DNA from: an uncultured Verrucomicrobiae bacterium
GTDB taxonomy: Bacteria > Verrucomicrobiota > Verrucomicrobiia > Limisphaerales > Palsa-1400
NCBI GenBank assembly: GCA_963764165.1
Contig: CAVXRD010000002.1
Span: 672,001 to 736,000 of the forward strand
Reading direction: 5' to 3'
Length of the DNA: 64,000 nucleotides
Both the position numbers and the translations under genes were made by a program. Each line of letters begins with the position of its first letter. Positions within the stretch are counted from its first letter, which is position 1. The notes below the pieces were generated by a model. That model saw nothing but the letters and a program-made list of their open reading frames with translations. It did no database searches and was not told the DNA's origin. Positions 1,459-42,951 of this stretch are shown here, one piece after another.

Positions 1459-1560
1459 CCAGTTTGACAATTCATTGTGCCCGGCCTGTTGATTAACTTT
1501 GACAAAAGGTAACTGGCGGCATCCGCCTGATTCTTCCCGCCGCTTACGTTAAAATAAAAA

Positions 1561-1653
1561 AATTGAACAGGAGAAAGACCGAGGGCGCAGAGAAGAAAAA
1601 ACCATTGTTGGGCCGGTTTTTCTCTGCGTCCTCTGTCTTTCTCCTGTTCAATT
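1561..1653. repeat. Imperfect palindrome, AACAGGAG-type (three ~9-nt units per arm)
   Basis: aattgaacaggagaaagaccgagggcgcagagaa ... ttctctgcgtcctctgtctttctcctgttcaatt, between convergent genes. Confidence 0.85.
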
Positions 1654-1680
1654 TCAGGGATTCTGAGAAAAGTTGGGCGC

Positions 1681-5098: not shown

Positions 5099-5151
5099 AG
5101 GATATGGTTACACCGGCGGTTCACAAATGTTTTGTGCAGAAGGCTGTTTGA

Positions 5152-5253
5152 GGCAGGGACGCCTCGCCGAGGCGTCCGGTTGTGTGTGAAAATGCCAACA
5201 GGCCGCGCGTGAATAACGCCTCACCCCGGACGCCTCGGCGAGGCGTCCCTACC
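5152..5253. repeat. REP-like doublet (REPIN-like), GTAG-type family A
   Basis: ggcagggacgcctcgccgaggcgtccgg ... ccggacgcctcggcgaggcgtccctacc; further copies at 10662, 14278, 26247. Confidence 0.9.
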
Positions 5254-5294
5254 ACAAAACTTGATTTGCGGAGCCGCTCAGCTAAAGGTGGGGT

Positions 5295-10654: not shown

Positions 10655-10661
10655 TTTGTGA

Positions 10662-10758
10662 GGTAGGACGCCTCGCCGAGGCGTCCGAGGCTGTGGAGTT
10701 TTTCGAACGCGTTTGGACTTGCGTGAGTCCCCGGACGCCTCGGCGAGGCGTCCCTACC
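10662..10758. repeat. REP-like doublet family A between convergent genes
   Basis: ggtaggacgcctcgccgaggcgtccg ... ccggacgcctcggcgaggcgtccctacc. Confidence 0.9.
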
Positions 10759-11889
10759 TTAATTAGTCGTGGGCAGGAAACGCACGCACATGGGGTTTTC
10801 TGTCTCCACTTTGCTGCCGGTCGGTTCCAAATGGCCGGTCGTTTGGTCTATTTTGAAAACGACGACGGTGTTCGATTCCTGATTCGCGGCCAGCAGAAAT
10901 TTTCCCGTCGGATCGATTTCAAATTGGCGCGGAATTTTGCCGCCGGTCGGGACGCATTCAACAAAGGTCAAATGGCCGGTGTCGGGATCGCATTTGAAGA
11001 TCGCGATGCTGTCGTGGCCTCGGTTTGAGGCGTAAACGAACTTGCCCGACACATGGACGGCGATTTCGGCGCACGTGCTGTTGCCGGAATAACCGGGCGG
11101 CAATGTGCTGATGGTTTGCAATTCGGTCAATGCACCTGTGGCGGGGTCGTAGGATAATGGGTTGATGGTGCATCCCATTTCATTCACGAGATACGCGAAG
11201 CGGCCATTTGGGTGGAACGCGAGGTGGCGAGGCCCGGCGCCGGGCTTTACTTTCGCGAAGGGCGGGTCGGCGGCCACCATGGAACCGGTGGCGGTGTCGA
11301 ACTTGAAAATCATCACTTTGTCCAAGCCAAGGTCACAGCCGTAGACGAATTTATCGCCCGGCCCCGCCACGAGACAATGGGCGTGCGGGCCTTCCTGCCG
11401 GCTCTTATCCACGCTGGAGCCACTGTCTTGAACAAAGGCGGACATCGGCTGAACTTCGCCGTTCGCCGCAAGCGGAAAAGCGGCGAAACTTCCGCTGCCA
11501 TAGTTGGCAATCAGCGCATTCTTGCCCGCGCTGTCCACCTCGACATAACACGGCCCTGAGCCTTTGGCCGGCTGCTTGTTCAAGAACGTTAATTTGCCTG
11601 CCGTCGCGTCGATGGCGAATGCGCTGATGCTGCTGGAATCGGCATTGCCGCCTTCGGTAATCGAATAAAGATATTTGTGATTCGGCGAAATATAGATGAA
11701 CGACGGATGCGCAATTTCCGCCGCCAATCCGATCTTGGTCAATGTGCCAGCCGCCGGGTCGAACCGAAACGACTCAATATTTTTCCGGCCGGAACCGACG
11801 AAGACAAGTTGCTGTTGCGCCCGCAAGCCGACGGGATACATCGCAAGCAGCGCGGCAACGGAAACCAGAGCGAATGGAATGAATCTCAT
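10759..11889 (-). CDS. pgl: 6-phosphogluconolactonase-family (7-bladed lactonase), exported
   Basis: ANYGSGS, RQEGPHAH, DLGLD, GAGPRHLAFHPNG, SNRGHDSI, GKIPR; signal peptide. Confidence 0.88.
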   Translation of the reverse strand: MRFIPFALVSVAALLAMYPVGLRAQQQLVFVGSGRKNIESFRFDPAAGTLTKIGLAAEIAHPSFIYISPNHKYLYSITEGGNADSSSISAFAIDATAGKLTFLNKQPAKGSGPCYVEVDSAGKNALIANYGSGSFAAFPLAANGEVQPMSAFVQDSGSSVDKSRQEGPHAHCLVAGPGDKFVYGCDLGLDKVMIFKFDTATGSMVAADPPFAKVKPGAGPRHLAFHPNGRFAYLVNEMGCTINPLSYDPATGALTELQTISTLPPGYSGNSTCAEIAVHVSGKFVYASNRGHDSIAIFKCDPDTGHLTFVECVPTGGKIPRQFEIDPTGKFLLAANQESNTVVVFKIDQTTGHLEPTGSKVETENPMCVRFLPTTN

Positions 11890-14220: not shown

Positions 14221-14277
14221 GTTGGCGCACGTTACCCGCCGCAATGATTCGTGACAAGTTCTCTAAAACGCCTCGGA

Positions 14278-14350
14278 GGTAGGGGCGCCTCGCCGAGGCG
14301 CCCGGGTTTGCGCGTGAATCATGCCACGACCCGATCGGCGAGGCGTCCCT
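14278..14350. repeat. Degenerate REP-like doublet family A
   Basis: ggtaggggcgcctcgccgaggcgccc ... tcggcgaggcgtccct. Confidence 0.75.
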
Positions 14351-15743: not shown

Positions 15744-17360
15744 ATGAACAAGAACCTCACCCAATTAGGGCAGCAATTGCTGGGCATCTGGAAGCAACTC
15801 GGCCTCAACCAGCGCATCAGCATCGCGATGGCCAGCGGCGTTGTCCTGGTGGGACTGGCCGCGATGGCGTTTTGGTCCAGCCGCCCGGATTATTCGCTGC
15901 TTTACGGCAAGCTCGACGATGGCGAAGCGTCGAAAGTGGTCGCCGCGCTGGACGAAGCCAAGACGCCCTATCAGGTGCGCGGCGGCTCGATTTACGTCCC
16001 CACTGACAAAGTTTATCAAATGCGGATGCAAATGGCGGGCAAGGGAATTCCCAAGGGCGACGGCGTCGGCTTCGAAATTTTCGACAAGGCGAACTTCGGA
16101 ATTTCCGATTTCGTCCAGCACGCCAATTACGCCCGCGCCGTTCAAGGCGAGCTTTCCCGCACCATCAGCCAGCTTGACCAGATTGAATCTGCCCGGGTGA
16201 TGATTGTCATGCCGGAAAATCGCCTTGTGATTGACAACGGTCGGAAGCCGACGGCTTCGGTGTTTGTCAAAGTGCGCGGCAACGCCACTCTTCCACCGGC
16301 TTCGGTGAATTCCATCCGCTTCCTCGTCGCCAACAGCGTCGAAGGATTGCAGGCCAGCAACGTCTCGGTGGTGGACAATCTGGGCAATGTTCTTTCTGAA
16401 AACGAGGAGCCGGATTCGGTTGCCGGGATGTCAAATAATCAGCTCACCGCGCGGCGCAATGTCGAGCAGTACCTCACGAAAAAAGCGCAGGGCATGCTGG
16501 AGCAGGTTTTGGGGGCGGGCCAGGCGGTCGTTCGCGTTTCGGCTGAATTGAATTGGGACACCGTGACCCGCACGGAAGAAAAATACGACCCGGACGGCCA
16601 GGTCATCCGCAGCAGCTCGATCAATGACGAAACCAGCGATTCGGCTTTGGCCAGCGGCGGTGGCGCTCCCGGGGCCTCGGCCAACGCCGCAGAAACCAAT
16701 GGCACCAACGTTGCCGGCTCCAACCCGCTCAACCGAAGCAAGACCACCAAGAAAACCGTCAGCAATGAATACGAGATCAACAAGATCTCCAGCAATGTGG
16801 TGCAGGCGGCTGGCGGCATCCGCCGGTTAACTGCGGCGGTGTTCATCGCGGAAAAGTACGAAGGCACTGGAGCCACCCGCAAATTGGCGCCCCGCTCACC
16901 CGAGGAAATTCTGAAGCTCACTGGCATCGTGCGCAACGCCCTGGGCGTCGAGGAAAGCACGGACTTGAACAAGAAGGACATCGTTCTGGAAGAGATGCCG
17001 TTCAATGACCAGCCGGCCATGGAGCTTTCGATGAAGTTGGATCAGCAGGAGAAACGGCAGATGTGGATGGACGTCGCCCAAAAGGCGCTTTATCCGGCGC
17101 TGGCCATCGGAGCCATGGCGCTTTTCTGGCGCTTATGGAAGACGACCGCCAAGGATGAGATTCCCGTTGCCATTCCCCTCTATAGTGGCAATGGGAATGG
17201 AAATGGCAACGGCAATGGGAACGGAAATGGCAACGGCCACCGCAAAGCCGGCCAAGGCGTGGTAACGGTGGACGTCTTGAACCAACTGATTCGCGAGAAT
17301 CCAGCCAACATGACGCAAGCCGTCCGAAGCTGGCTCGCACGAGGCAAACCGCAGGAATAA
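15744..17360 (+). CDS. fliF: MS-ring protein FliF
   Basis: GFEIFD, FG.SDF, GELSRTI, PTASV, SVVD, two TMs. Confidence 0.96.
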   Translation: MNKNLTQLGQQLLGIWKQLGLNQRISIAMASGVVLVGLAAMAFWSSRPDYSLLYGKLDDGEASKVVAALDEAKTPYQVRGGSIYVPTDKVYQMRMQMAGKGIPKGDGVGFEIFDKANFGISDFVQHANYARAVQGELSRTISQLDQIESARVMIVMPENRLVIDNGRKPTASVFVKVRGNATLPPASVNSIRFLVANSVEGLQASNVSVVDNLGNVLSENEEPDSVAGMSNNQLTARRNVEQYLTKKAQGMLEQVLGAGQAVVRVSAELNWDTVTRTEEKYDPDGQVIRSSSINDETSDSALASGGGAPGASANAAETNGTNVAGSNPLNRSKTTKKTVSNEYEINKISSNVVQAAGGIRRLTAAVFIAEKYEGTGATRKLAPRSPEEILKLTGIVRNALGVEESTDLNKKDIVLEEMPFNDQPAMELSMKLDQQEKRQMWMDVAQKALYPALAIGAMALFWRLWKTTAKDEIPVAIPLYSGNGNGNGNGNGNGNGNGHRKAGQGVVTVDVLNQLIRENPANMTQAVRSWLARGKPQE

Positions 17361-26079: not shown

Positions 26080-27152
26080 ACTTCCTCCGCTGCAGCCATG
26101 ACCCGATTCTCAAAAACCCGCTCCGCAAATCTGATCGCGCGGTAGGGCGAGGCTCCCGCCGAGCCATTCCCCGCGAAGATGGTTCGGCGGGAGGCCCCAA
26201 CCAACGAATTGGTGAGAAGTTCCGACGAACAAATTTCGCCCTTGGTGGCAGGGACGCCTCGCCGAGGCGTCCGGTTGCGCGGGAAAGTTTTTGTGGGCCG
26301 CACCGTTCAACAACGCCTCACCCCGGACGCCTCGGCGAGGCGTCCCTACCTTTACAAGACAGTTCGTTGGCAGCCTCGCCCTGCCGTGCGCCCGGTTGGA
26401 TAACGGTTCTGAAGGCAGTCGTTGTTTTATTTCTGATCTTCGCCAGCGCGCCAGCCGTCCACGCGCAAACGAACAATGCCGGATTGAATCTTAACATCGG
26501 TGTCGGCGGGTTGAATCAACCTGTCGACGTTGACAGCGCGGTCAAGGTCCTGGTCGTCATGACGCTCCTGACGCTGGCGCCGTCCATCATTCTGTTGATG
26601 ACGTGCTTTACGCGAATCGTCATTGTGCTGTCGTTCGTCCGCTCCGCGCTTTCGCTGCAAGGCTCGCCTTCCAACCAGATTCTCGTCGGCCTTTCCTTGT
26701 TCTTGACGTTCTTCATCATGGCCCCCGTCTGGGAGCGAATCGACCGCGAGGCGCTTGAGCCTTATCGCGCCCACGAAATTTCCAGCGAAGTGGCGATGGA
26801 TCGCGCCGCTGTTCCCATTCGCACCTTCATGCTGAAGCAGGCCCGTCCGAAGGATGTGGAATTGTTCGCCGTGCTGGCTCGCATCGGACCCACTGCGCCC
26901 GACAAATTGCCGCTGAAGGTGGTGATTCCGGGATTTATCATCAGCGAATTGCGGACGGCTTTCCAGATGGGATTTCTTTTGTTCCTGCCTTTCATGCTGA
27001 TCGACATCATCGTCGCCACCGTGTTGATGAGCATGGGCATGATGATGATGCCGCCCATGACCATTTCACTGCCCTTGAAGATCCTGCTTTTTGTGCTGGT
27101 GGACGGCTGGCACCTCGTCGTCAGTTCGATCATCCAAAGTTTTGCCACTTGA
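26076..27152 (+). CDS. fliP: Export gate protein FliP, N-terminus extended by repeats
   Basis: ATGA overlap with the fliO stop; MTCFTRIVIVL, PSNQ, SELRTAF, MGMMMMPP, LFVLVDGW. Confidence 0.93.
   Translation: MNFLRCSHDPILKNPLRKSDRAVGRGSRRAIPREDGSAGGPNQRIGEKFRRTNFALGGRDASPRRPVARESFCGPHRSTTPHPGRLGEASLPLQDSSLAASPCRAPGWITVLKAVVVLFLIFASAPAVHAQTNNAGLNLNIGVGGLNQPVDVDSAVKVLVVMTLLTLAPSIILLMTCFTRIVIVLSFVRSALSLQGSPSNQILVGLSLFLTFFIMAPVWERIDREALEPYRAHEISSEVAMDRAAVPIRTFMLKQARPKDVELFAVLARIGPTAPDKLPLKVVIPGFIISELRTAFQMGFLLFLPFMLIDIIVATVLMSMGMMMMPPMTISLPLKILLFVLVDGWHLVVSSIIQSFAT
26141..26385. repeat. REP-like arms of two families inside the fliP 5' region
   Basis: Family B ggtagggcgaggctcccgccgagcc (26141) with partners at 26181 and 26361; family A doublet 26247-26350. 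Confidence 0.85.
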
Positions 27153-36376: not shown

Positions 36377-37627
36377 ATGAAAATTGTTCTGGCTTACTCG
36401 GGCGGGCTTGATACTTCGGTTCTCCTTTCATGGATCAAGGAAAAATTTTCCGCCGAGGTCATTGCCTTTTGCGCCGATATCGGCCAGGAGGAGGAACTCA
36501 AGGGGCTCGAAAAAAAGGCGCTCAAAACCGGCGCGTCAAAAATTTTCATAGATGATCTCCAGGAGGAATTCGCCCGCGATTTCATCTTCCCCATGATGCA
36601 GGCGGGTGCGATTTACGAGAATCAATACTTCCTCGGCACCAGCATCGCCCGCCCCCTCATCGCAAAGCGGATGATCGAGATCGCCAAGAAGGAAAAAGCC
36701 GACGCCATCGCCCACGGCGCGACCGGCAAAGGCAACGATCAGGTGCGCTTTGAACTCACCGCCGCCGCCCTCGCGCCTCAATTGGAGGTGATCGCCCCGT
36801 GGCGGGACGCTTCGTTCCGCGCGCAATTCCCTGGCCGCGCCGAGATGATCCAATATTGCGAAGACAAATCCATTCCCGTGCAAGCCAGCGCGAAGAAGCC
36901 GTATTCGATGGACCGCAACCTTCTGCACATTTCGTTCGAAGCGGGCATTCTCGAAGATCCGTGGCTGGACGCCTCGTCAGCCGCGCACAAGGAAATGTAT
37001 AAATTGAGCGTCTCGCCGGAAGATGCGCCGGACAAACCGGAGTATGTCACGCTGGAATTCCTCAAGGGCGATTGCATCGCGGTCAACGGAAAATCGCTCA
37101 ATCCGCTGGGCGTGATGAAGATTTTGAACAGGCTCGGCGGCAAACACGGCGTCGGGCGGGTGGACTTGGTGGAAAACCGTTTCGTCGGCATGAAATCGCG
37201 CGGTGTTTACGAAACGCCGGGCGGCTCGATTCTTCATTATGCGCATCGGCAAATGGAGTCCTTGACGATGGATCGCGAAGTGATGCACTTGCGCGACTCG
37301 CTGATTCCGAAGTATGCGGAATTGGTCTATTACGGATTCTGGTTCGCGCCGGAGCGGCTGGCCTTGCAGGCGCTTGTGACGGAAAGCCAAAAAAACGTCA
37401 CCGGCACCGTGCGCGTGAAATTGTACAAGGGGAACATTATAAACGCAGGCCGCAAATCTCCCGTCAGCCTCTACAATCCGCACATTGCCACCATGGAAGC
37501 CGATCCGACCAAAGCCTACAATCAGGACGACGCGACGGGTTTCATACGGCTGAACGGCCTGCGCCTGAAAGTGGCCGCGCAAGTGCATGGGCAGCAAAAG
37601 GGAAGAGCCAACAATCCTGATGAATGA
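36377..37627 (+). CDS. argG: Argininosuccinate synthase
   Basis: [41 protein letters not shown]. Confidence 0.98.
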
Positions 37628-37716
37628 ACAGAAGCAAACAAAGGTAACGAAGGGCGGGTAAAGATTTTCAGACAAGCGTTTTTTCCCGCTCTTCGCTCAC
37701 TTCGTTTTCTTCTGTT
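37627..37716. repeat. Palindromic element, left flank of the GxxExxY gene
   Basis: aacagaagcaaacaaaggtaacgaag ... cttcgctcacttcgttttcttctgtt. Confidence 0.88.
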
Positions 37717-37738
37717 AGAATGATTTGAACGCCTTCAT

Positions 37739-38140
37739 ATGCATCCCGTTTTCGAGAAAGCAGATGAGTTGAGCCGGATGGTCATTGGTGCGGCGATTGA
37801 AGTGCATCGCTTGAAGGGGCCAGGCCTGATAGAAAGCATTTATGAAAAGTGTCTGATACGGGAGCTGAGCCTGCGGAATTTGACGGCTGTGAACCAGCGG
37901 CTGGTCAAAATCGAATACAAAGGTATCGAATTTGAAGAACCGCTGCGCTTTGATGTGCTGGTCGAAAACTGCCTGTTGCTTGAACTCAAGTCAGTCCAAG
38001 AATTGATGCCTATTCATAAGGCGCAACTCCTCAGCTACATGAAGCTCTTGGATATTCCAATTGGATTGGTGATCAATTTTCACGAAATGCGGCTCGTGGA
38101 TGGCCTTCACCGGATGATTCTCCCCGGGGCCAATGCATGA
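37739..38140 (+). CDS. GxxExxY protein (PD-(D/E)XK-like nuclease family)
   Basis: AIEVHRLKGPGLIESIYEKCL, RFDVLVE, LELKSV, AQLLSYMK, GLVINF. Confidence 0.95.
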   Translation: MHPVFEKADELSRMVIGAAIEVHRLKGPGLIESIYEKCLIRELSLRNLTAVNQRLVKIEYKGIEFEEPLRFDVLVENCLLLELKSVQELMPIHKAQLLSYMKLLDIPIGLVINFHEMRLVDGLHRMILPGANA

Positions 38141-38146
38141 AGAATT

Positions 38147-38233
38147 AACAGAAGCAAACAAAGGGAACGAAGGGGGACGGATTTTTTTCAAACAGGGTTT
38201 TTTCCAACTTCGTTAACTTCGTTTCCTTCTGTT
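38147..38233. repeat. Palindromic element, right flank of the GxxExxY gene (direct copy of the left one)
   Basis: aacagaagcaaacaaagggaacgaag ... cttcgttaacttcgtttccttctgtt. Confidence 0.88.
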
Positions 38234-38244
38234 AAATCTCCCAT

Positions 38245-39039
38245 ATGACCCCGCCCTTCTACGACACCCACGCGCATCTCGGTTATCCCGATTTTGCGGG
38301 CGAGCTGCCGCAAATCGTCGCGCGGGCTGAGGCGGCGGGGATCACCAAGATCATCACCATCGGCACCGATTTGGAAACGAGCGAGCGAGCCATCGCCATT
38401 GCCGAGCAATTTCCGCAGGTTTACGCGGCCGTTGGCTGGCATCCGACGGATGCCCTCCGAGCACCGGAGGATATTCGCCCCGCGTTTTCCAAGTTGGCGC
38501 GGCATCCTAAAGTCGTGGCCATTGGCGAGACGGGCTTGGACTATTTTCGCCCTCCCGAAGGAGATGTGGGCCGCTACAAGGCGAAGCAGGCGCAGCTTTT
38601 TCGCCAGCAGTTGGAATTGGCGTGCGATCTCGGTTTGAACTGCATCATACACCAACGCAGTTCGTTTGAGGATGCGCTGGAGCAAATGAAGCCGTTTGAA
38701 TCGCGGACGAAAGGGGTTTTCCACTGCTTTTCCGAAAGCTTGGAATCGATGAGACGGGTATTTGAGGCGGGATTCTTGATCAGTTTTACCGGGATTCTGA
38801 CTTTCAAAAACGGAACCAATGTCCGCGAGGCCTTCGCGGCAGCCGCCCCAAATCGCTTCATGCTGGAAACAGATTGCCCCTTTTTGGCGCCGGTTCCGTA
38901 TCGGGGCAAACGCTGTGAGCCAGCTTACGTCCGGGAAATTGCAGGAATGGGGGCCGAAGTGAGGGGGTGTGCGTTGGAAGTGCTCAGCGTCGCCACGTGC
39001 GAAACGGCACACCAATTCTTTCCTAAATTGTTGAATTAA
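38245..39039 (+). CDS. tatD: TatD-family DNase
   Basis: DTHAHL, GWHP, IGETGLDY, HCFS, LETDCPFLAPVPYRGK..EP. Confidence 0.95.
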   Translation: MTPPFYDTHAHLGYPDFAGELPQIVARAEAAGITKIITIGTDLETSERAIAIAEQFPQVYAAVGWHPTDALRAPEDIRPAFSKLARHPKVVAIGETGLDYFRPPEGDVGRYKAKQAQLFRQQLELACDLGLNCIIHQRSSFEDALEQMKPFESRTKGVFHCFSESLESMRRVFEAGFLISFTGILTFKNGTNVREAFAAAAPNRFMLETDCPFLAPVPYRGKRCEPAYVREIAGMGAEVRGCALEVLSVATCETAHQFFPKLLN

Positions 39040-42256: not shown

Positions 42257-42332
42257 CGGGGAGGAAAGGGTTCTGAAATTAAACAGGAGAAAAACCGAGA
42301 GAACAGAGAAAAATGGCCTTTGAGGTTGCAAC

Positions 42333-42595
42333 GGGCGCATCTCACTTTTTGGCAATCCCTTGCCGACGAAACGCGGATTCCCTCGCCCCGCCCAGCGGGG
42401 AGAGGGTTAGGGAGAGGGGAGCTTAGCAAACGACTAAAATCCATCGGCCTCAATGCGCATCGCCTCGCCTAGCATTAACGAGTTGCCCCTCTCTCCTTCT
42501 CTCTCCCCGCCAAGCGTGGCGGGGAGAGAGCGATCACTTGTCGCTCTGCGGAGCTTTTTGCAGAAGTCCGCCCTCACTAAAACTGAGATGCGCCC
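42333..42595. mobile_element. MITE with TIR GGGCGCATCTCA and 9-bp target duplication
   Basis: gggcgcatctca...tgagatgcgccc flanked by GGTTGCAAC at 42324 and 42596; internal ccct..cccc/ggggagaggg palindrome pair. Confidence 0.88.
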
Positions 42596-42604
42596 GGTTG
42601 CAAC

Positions 42605-42820
42605 CGGCGTATCTCATTTTATCTCAAGGCTACTATGTCGCCCCGATGGGGCTTAGGAGGTTTTTCGGGCGTGTAACTACAAATATCGGCGCTCGAGCCA
42701 GCTTCTGGCGCCAGATCAGAAGCCCCGTCAGGGGCGAAATATTTGTAGTAACCGATGCTCAAGGTATAAGCCCCGTAGGTGGCGGCATAAACATGTGGAG
42801 GTGCAAAGTGAGATACCCCC
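42605..42820. mobile_element. Older MITE of the same TIR family
   Basis: cggcgtatctcatttt ... aaagtgagataccccc; degenerate TSD (ggttgcaac / cattgcacc); internal agcccc..ggggcg palindromes. Confidence 0.65.
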
Positions 42821-42951
42821 CATTGCACCGATGATTTTTCCATCTCCGTTTCCTCGGACTTCCTCCTGTTCAAACCGCCCAAGCAATTTTCAAAACACGC
42901 TCTAAAAACCCGGCTTGACCGCGACACCTCGCAAGTGTGCATTTGATGGGT

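Follow-up and report, generated by a model that had tools for sequence, protein, structure and literature searches.

The closest described systems in which a small nuclease is paired with palindromic repeats are the Ssn nucleases and the RAYT/REP elements. SsnA, a GIY-YIG single-strand nuclease, cuts beside its own flanking hairpins; in the accessible part of that report, the mobility of Ssn is offered as a hypothesis only and 71% of the genes are flanked by repeats, across phyla (PMC11893778). RAYT/REP and TIRYT/TIRtron units place a gene between repeats or long inverted repeats and form dispersed families, dimers, and clusters, as far as the available text goes (PMC3733652). The family PF13366, to which the gene considered here belongs, has its function listed as “Unknown” in the accessible portion of an earlier paper (PMC3424549). 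Only incidental mentions of GxxExxY proteins occur in the searchable parts of the full-text literature, flanking repeats are not described in those papers, and full-text searches, which leave most subscription journals outside their coverage, found no description of a link between GxxExxY genes and repeats. The first-pass annotation of this DNA had proposed such a link and knew of no mechanistic description; going by the available text, the concept of a non-HUH, non-DDE nuclease acting on its own hairpins was already published as Ssn, with a different fold (PMC11893778).

The window is the whole stretch of DNA that was analysed, 64,000 nucleotides long. The 133-aa GxxExxY gene (37739-38140, forward strand) was correctly placed between two host genes of the same strand, argG on the left (36377-37627; PF00764 and PF20979) and tatD on the right (38245-39039; PF01026), and it matches TIGR04256 (128.6 bits, cut-off 35, E 1.4e-37) and PF13366 (125.1 bits, cut-off 22, E 2.4e-36). 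As the annotation had it, one palindrome lies at the argG stop (37627-37716) and a direct copy, in the same orientation, lies after the gene (38147-38233). The upstream palindrome consists of a forward left arm of three 9-nt units (37627-37652), a 38-nt spacer with no strand (37653-37690), and a right arm on the reverse strand (37691-37716), and its first base is the last base of the argG stop codon. The downstream palindrome has a forward left arm (38147-38172), a 35-nt spacer, likewise with no strand (38173-38207), and a reverse-strand right arm (38208-38233). The three-unit arm design stands, with 26-nt arms and units at a 9-nt period, and the two palindromes form a 100-nt direct repeat with 79% identity. 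When folded as single-stranded DNA they give z values of -3.9 and -4.0, and 0 of 200 shuffles were equally good.

Two other palindromes of the window, earlier described as gene-less copies of the same design, were upheld in part. At 1482-1654 (forward strand) the palindrome is real and belongs to an ACAGGAG variant (1560-1654), but the copy is not strictly gene-less, because what remains of a decayed GxxExxY gene, a piece of its 3′ end at 1482-1546 (nhmmer E 8e-4), precedes it. At 42282-42870 (no strand) the left arm is also real but forms no local hairpin (z +0.8): this ACAGGAG-variant arm at 42282-42308 has its partner at about 42844-42870, with some 535 bp of other repeats nested between them. 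Several other hairpin repeats lie inside this composite, including an inverted pair at about 42324-42355 and 42596-42627. Elsewhere in the window, a 12-nt tandem repeat with three overlapping 24-nt copies occurs at 17187-17234, possibly coding a Gly-Asn run, and GTAG-type REP doublets are found at 5147-5258, 10656-10773, 14273-14345, and 26242-26365, the pattern having about 535 matches genome-wide.

The GxxExxY motif of the protein is G29-x-x-E32-x-x-Y35. Structurally, the alignment-based model (pLDDT 97; a single-sequence fold with pLDDT 33 was discarded) shows a minimal PD-(D/E)XK fold with E32, D72, E82-x-K84, and Q96-xxx-Y100. PD-(D/E)XK folds dominate its structural matches. In Foldseek, Cas4 SSO0001 ranks first (E 1.8e-3), ahead of AdnA, Cas4, and lambda-type exonucleases; the Holliday-junction resolvase Hjc is among the matches (Z 6.0) and is not ranked above the others, which weighs neither for nor against a resolvase role. 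All of these matches are weak (none at E ≤ 0.001, best Z 7.3, TM 0.49-0.57 for the Cas4/RecB/lambda-type enzymes), and no assignment beyond the PD-(D/E)XK class is secure. The class assigned in the first-pass annotation is nonetheless the right one, given the fold and D72, E82, and K84. PDB sequence searches with the protein gave no matches, and a homodimer prediction scored 0.01, which weighs neither way. Among 197 sequences, E32 is conserved in 196, D72 in 196, E/D82 in 197, K84 in 196, Q96 in 191, and Y100 in 188. The order E..D..ExK..QxxxY is shared with Cas4/RecB/lambda-exonuclease-like nucleases, and its QxxxY part is linked to RecB/Cas4 enzymes. By this alignment, the Cas4/RecB-like active site is intact and conserved. 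A dN/dS of 0.07 was obtained against the copy in a metagenomic locus, L249 (92.5% identical), with 0.09 for tatD, and these ratios indicate strong purifying selection on the GxxExxY gene. The family was found in 105 of 201 genomes of the phylum, with 1-12 matches each.

Several features separate the unit from Cas4 itself, although the best, if weak, structural matches of the protein are Cas4/RecB/lambda-exonuclease-like. The protein is shorter, with 133 aa against about 200, and the four conserved cysteines of Cas4 are absent: three cysteines are present and none lies in a column conserved at 90% or more, so an Fe-S cluster is not expected. Moreover, the neighbours are argG and tatD, with no CRISPR context at the locus.

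As in Ssn/NTS (SRM) systems, a small single-domain nuclease is encoded in a repeat-gene-repeat layout, between cognate inverted repeats that are also dispersed through the genome as gene-less copies, the gene-repeat association extends across phyla (70 of 78 genes here), and different homologues have their own repeat variants, to the extent that the available text allows the comparison (PMC11893778). The same text describes a GIY-YIG fold and 20-50-nt hairpins, whereas here the fold is PD-(D/E)XK and Cas4/RecB-like, each arm holds three tandem words of 8-10 nt, and the gene is often inside the palindrome. PF13366 is the sole Pfam match of the gene, and the GIY-YIG domain (cd10448) that marks Ssn/SRM was not found in it. 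The likeness to RAYT/REP and TIRYT/TIRtron likewise lies in the layout and the dispersed families, as against the differing repeat grammar, the lack of a GTAG tag, and the lack of a match to the families with an HUH motif and catalytic tyrosine, again within the accessible text on those elements (PMC3733652). Neither Pfam nor NCBIfam gave a match of the protein to Y1 transposase (HUH) families, and neither profile search nor fold comparison gave a DDE transposase. The enzyme belongs neither with RAYT (HUH) nor with Ssn (GIY-YIG), but on the published portions consulted the GxxExxY unit matches their genomic logic.

The junction itself is variable among relatives. A metagenome scan for the tatD start returned 17 loci, several of them near-duplicates, of which 13 had argG upstream. 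Eleven of these 13 junctions are empty, one has a repeat of a 10-nt class, and one (L249) has the same gene-palindrome unit; an allele with the gene but without repeats was not found among the alleles examined. Within the genus, argG and tatD are directly adjacent in two genomes (G004 and G002) with nothing between, a third (G003) has a gene-less palindrome of the different, 10-nt class at this place, and a fourth (G001) has another gene after argG. After argG in L013 and L019, repeated short GATATCGCAATTTGCGATATC-like palindromes were observed, and in L013 a distant GxxExxY gene lies near them.

Comparison with L249 clarifies how this allele may have arisen. There, a solo palindrome follows the argG stop; some 200 bp further on, a truncated arm is joined to a 40-nt copy of the gene tail, and behind it come a palindrome, the gene, a second palindrome, and tatD. 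The interval between solo palindrome and truncated arm (about 190-390 of L249, reverse strand) is AT-rich and carries repeated TGCAACA words. In the window, the forward-strand segment 37602-37613, now part of the argG tail, is a remnant of the outer end of a further, solo copy, which L249 keeps intact at this place; this 12-mer occurs 5 times in the genome and directly precedes an arm in 3 of the other 4 cases. The adjoining segment (37614-37626, forward strand), which completes the argG sequence ...NPDE-stop, is a remnant of a duplicated GxxExxY gene tail fused to the upstream palindrome and aligns to the end of the 40-nt relic before the L249 upstream palindrome. The argG allele therefore looks like a deletion derivative, running from the first solo arm to the tail relic with removal of the old argG stop. 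L249, in which argG stops at the outer end of the element, confirms the suspicion that the tail (RANNPDE) comes from the element. Spacer matches between the two loci are better crosswise (upstream here against L249 downstream 28/37, downstream here against L249 upstream 29/36) than by position (24/37 and 23/36), which hints at an exchange between the two palindromes, from one pair of short, homopolymer-rich sequences. The form with two palindromes likely goes back to a tandem duplication, or to recombination at a palindrome, with a later deletion.

A genome-wide count gave 99 arms in 67 clusters, with 100 positions scoring 18 or more in the real genome against 3 in the reversed genome. Complete palindromes number 28. 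In their 56 arms, positions 2-8, 12-13, 15-17, and 21-26 are nearly fixed while the linkers vary, the consensus has no GTAG tag, and mean identity is 78% for arms and 48% for spacers. Eight solo copies share about 35 nt of non-palindromic flank and are thus copies of one another, not separately evolved. Two other full paralogues are present (G000:C2:1025037-1025363 and 1601681-1602019), each with its own different arms; the second has arms of 10-nt period, a class (C) with 76 arms in the genome that lies within 250 bp of 6 of the 67 class-A clusters against 0.4 expected. Class D has 14 arms. Hitch-hiking on GTAG-type REPs was not seen in this genome, where 4 of 67 class-A clusters lie beside such REPs and about 3 are expected. 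Nor is a 5′-truncation or retro-copying origin of the solos supported: with the gene as the only exception, the flanks of solo arms stayed within the control maximum for gene-tail relics, of which there are single cases only. No target-site duplication was seen in the comparisons with empty argG-tatD or pheS-pheT alleles, and around the 28 palindromes, which are old copies with uncertain ends, the mean longest flank repeat was 4.0 against 3.9 in permutations (p 0.2). A fixed cut point was not found at the repeats.

The association was followed across 110 loci, from which 12 with short flanks and the focal one were removed. An arm matrix built solely from non-focal arms of this genome detected arms beside 70 of 78 homologues at 57% identity or more, on both sides in 61 of them, and beside none of the 19 more distant homologues. 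The 19 carry other words, and most of the 8 close homologues without matrix-detected arms have variant arms on inspection. Arms are concentrated near the genes, with 205 in 35 kb against 14 in 148 kb further out. A class-independent detector of periodic inverted repeats was positive for 117 of 185 GxxExxY flanks, after 15 of 200 loci had been dropped, and for 6 of 200 control genes, which come from this one genome; this is the enrichment that the hypothesis called for. The unit word changes by clade on the protein tree, arm similarity climbs with protein identity, and the Mantel test outside the focal clade gave 0/500. The arm-word cosine is 0.177 for pairs from different genomes at 55% identity or more (n=258), as compared to 0.059 for paralogue pairs of the same genome (n=52), the latter not above background. 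The suggested covariation of repeat word and protein clade is therefore present, and by these comparisons the arm word follows the protein and not the host. Covariation alone proves no binding, as the gene and its linked flanks descend together. The same arms also accompany, for example, close homologues in records titled Desulfoferrobacter and Pirellulaceae. Among 160 genomes of the order, mostly MAGs and including kin that are not independent, 18 have the cognate gene; exact arms are present in 12 of these (the other 6 lack the exact pattern) and in 27 of the 142 in which no such gene was found; at least five arms occur in 6 of 18 and 8 of 142, respectively. Gaps in the MAGs and variant arms may lie behind some of these mismatches. 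Overall, flank enrichment and clade-tracking words strongly support the partnership.

Because each protein branch has its own repeat word, the enzyme likely cuts at the repeats and thereby likely spreads them. The preferred reading, drawn from genomic comparison, is that the locus is probably a small selfish unit: its Cas4/RecB-like nuclease would recognise the three-unit words of the arms around its own gene, perhaps with one protomer for each 9-10-nt unit, and would cut at or beside them. Host repair would then make copies of arms, entire palindromes, or the gene at sites that are new or were occupied before. Cutting near the words and copying by host repair would account for the clade-specific words, the conserved arms with drifting spacers, the variable ends free of duplications, the tandems, and the shells.

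The last two are seen among the layouts. The 78 loci include 22 with the gene in the loop, 13 with one extra arm on either side, 6 with two palindromes, and 4 with outward-facing arms. A tandem palindrome-gene-palindrome-gene-palindrome dimer is present in one genome (G508), partial tandems in which the head or the tail of the gene is duplicated occur at five loci (L079, L159, L226, L036, and L130), and internally deleted shells occur in three genomes (G000:C2:1224995, G008, and G045). The 72 close homologues fall in 47 neighbourhoods, some sites being reused, so that the fixed cognate insertion site of a homing endonuclease is not observed.

It is unlikely, in our estimation, that the gene is only cargo, one of several small genes carried inside palindromes that owe their spread to host recombination, to transformation, or to another enzyme such as a RAYT. 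Of 30 arms inspected in G508, at least 28 stand singly within composite repeats, for which reason another enzyme could have spread them. The dispersed composites of G508 (L292-L321) join a GTAG-type REP and a CCCTCACCC-type hairpin to arms from two classes of GxxExxY unit, and some form 324-bp tandem arrays; the CCCTCACCC-type hairpin is one that we take to be linked to DUF559 genes. Cargo is also favoured by the arms in 27 of the 142 genomes where no cognate gene was found, and by the pheS-pheT junction. This was read by eye in 70 genomes (70 of 132 matched) of another family, that of G247 (L261-L290 and L329-L368): 26 are short, 4 have a GxxExxY gene, 26 have gene-less three-unit arms of several classes, 7 have a four-helix-bundle gene in 7-mer arrays (four confirmed as PF05635), 2 have 7-mer solos, 4 are other, and 1 is unclassified. 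PF05635 is known from rRNA genes as the 23S rRNA intervening-sequence protein. Its elements resemble the present unit in that a small gene lies inside inverted repeats at the same junction, and differ in that the protein is a four-helix bundle without nuclease annotation. A family of this kind with a similar design at the same site speaks for the cargo reading. Cargo does not account, however, for the constancy of the word within each protein clade from host to host or for conserved arms beside drifting spacers, and the class-A clusters show no association with GTAG-type REPs in this genome.

Interchangeable repeat units occupy pheS-pheT in 39 of the 70 genomes, and every one of them begins directly behind the pheS stop. 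The class differs even between genomes with 96% identity in pheS, and on these alleles the classes turn over rapidly. Such replacement speaks against a domesticated nuclease that would act at the repeats on incoming or exposed single-stranded DNA, cutting it and so tuning host recombination, like SsnA in Neisseria, without moving itself, a possibility to which we give little weight. The SsnA precedent, so far as the available text describes it, supports this idea (PMC11893778). The strong purifying selection, the presence in 105 of 201 phylum genomes, the fact that some sites have been retained in more than a few genera, in groups of 10 and 6 loci, and the near absence from viral contigs (2 distant loci) all agree with it, whereas the patchy presence over 47 neighbourhoods, the 1-12 paralogues per genome, and the broken and deleted copies do not.

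The arms could also act as RNA, pairing in the operon transcript so that the protein binds or cuts it; 23S rRNA intervening sequences and REP stabilisers offer parallels for RNA pairing. Insertion directly after stop codons in operons, the gene-in-loop form as the commonest layout (22 of 78), and the name of the analogous PF05635 family would suit such a unit. Complementarity at linker positions 10, 14, 18, 19, and 23, however, is no higher within elements than between elements (positions 9, 11, and 20 show some excess within), co-orientation with the upstream gene (75/110) is no higher than in controls (113/161) under a noisy classifier, no Rfam family comes near its gathering score, and the closest folds are DNases, all of which makes the RNA reading improbable. 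Recognition of sequence rather than of pairing alone is likely. As for the substrate of the proposed nuclease, there is a mild preference for a single-stranded hairpin, as for Ssn and RAYT, with double-stranded arms given a little less than an even chance. A hairpin is compatible with the missing compensatory signal, since SsnA needs both sequence and structure according to the accessible text (PMC11893778).

That the arms are mere operator sites for self-repression of the gene is hardly credible: they abut the start codon in many loci and conserve sequence, not pairing, yet downstream arms exist, 28 complete palindromes with shared non-arm flanks are spread over the genome, and the catalytic residues are conserved.

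The idea of a selfish unit that cuts near its own words can be carried one step further. It is possible, though doubtful, that these are minimal transposase-free mobile elements, in which a Cas4-like nuclease of 130 aa cuts at the word arrays of its own unit and leaves the copying of that unit to host repair, while many clades with differing words, and the analogous four-helix-bundle units, compete and replace each other at the same junctions. The GxxExxY family would then amount to a naturally occurring collection of very small sequence-specific nucleases, the target word of each being legible in its flanks. An orphan nuclease family present in 105 of 201 phylum genomes gains a predicted substrate that is readable from the flanks of each gene, and its function can therefore be tested with oligonucleotides. 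If the reading is true, a third enzyme fold would join the nuclease-palindrome partnerships, after HUH (RAYT) and GIY-YIG (Ssn), and an abundant class of intergenic repeats that reshapes operon junctions, and even gene ends such as the argG tail, would be explained.
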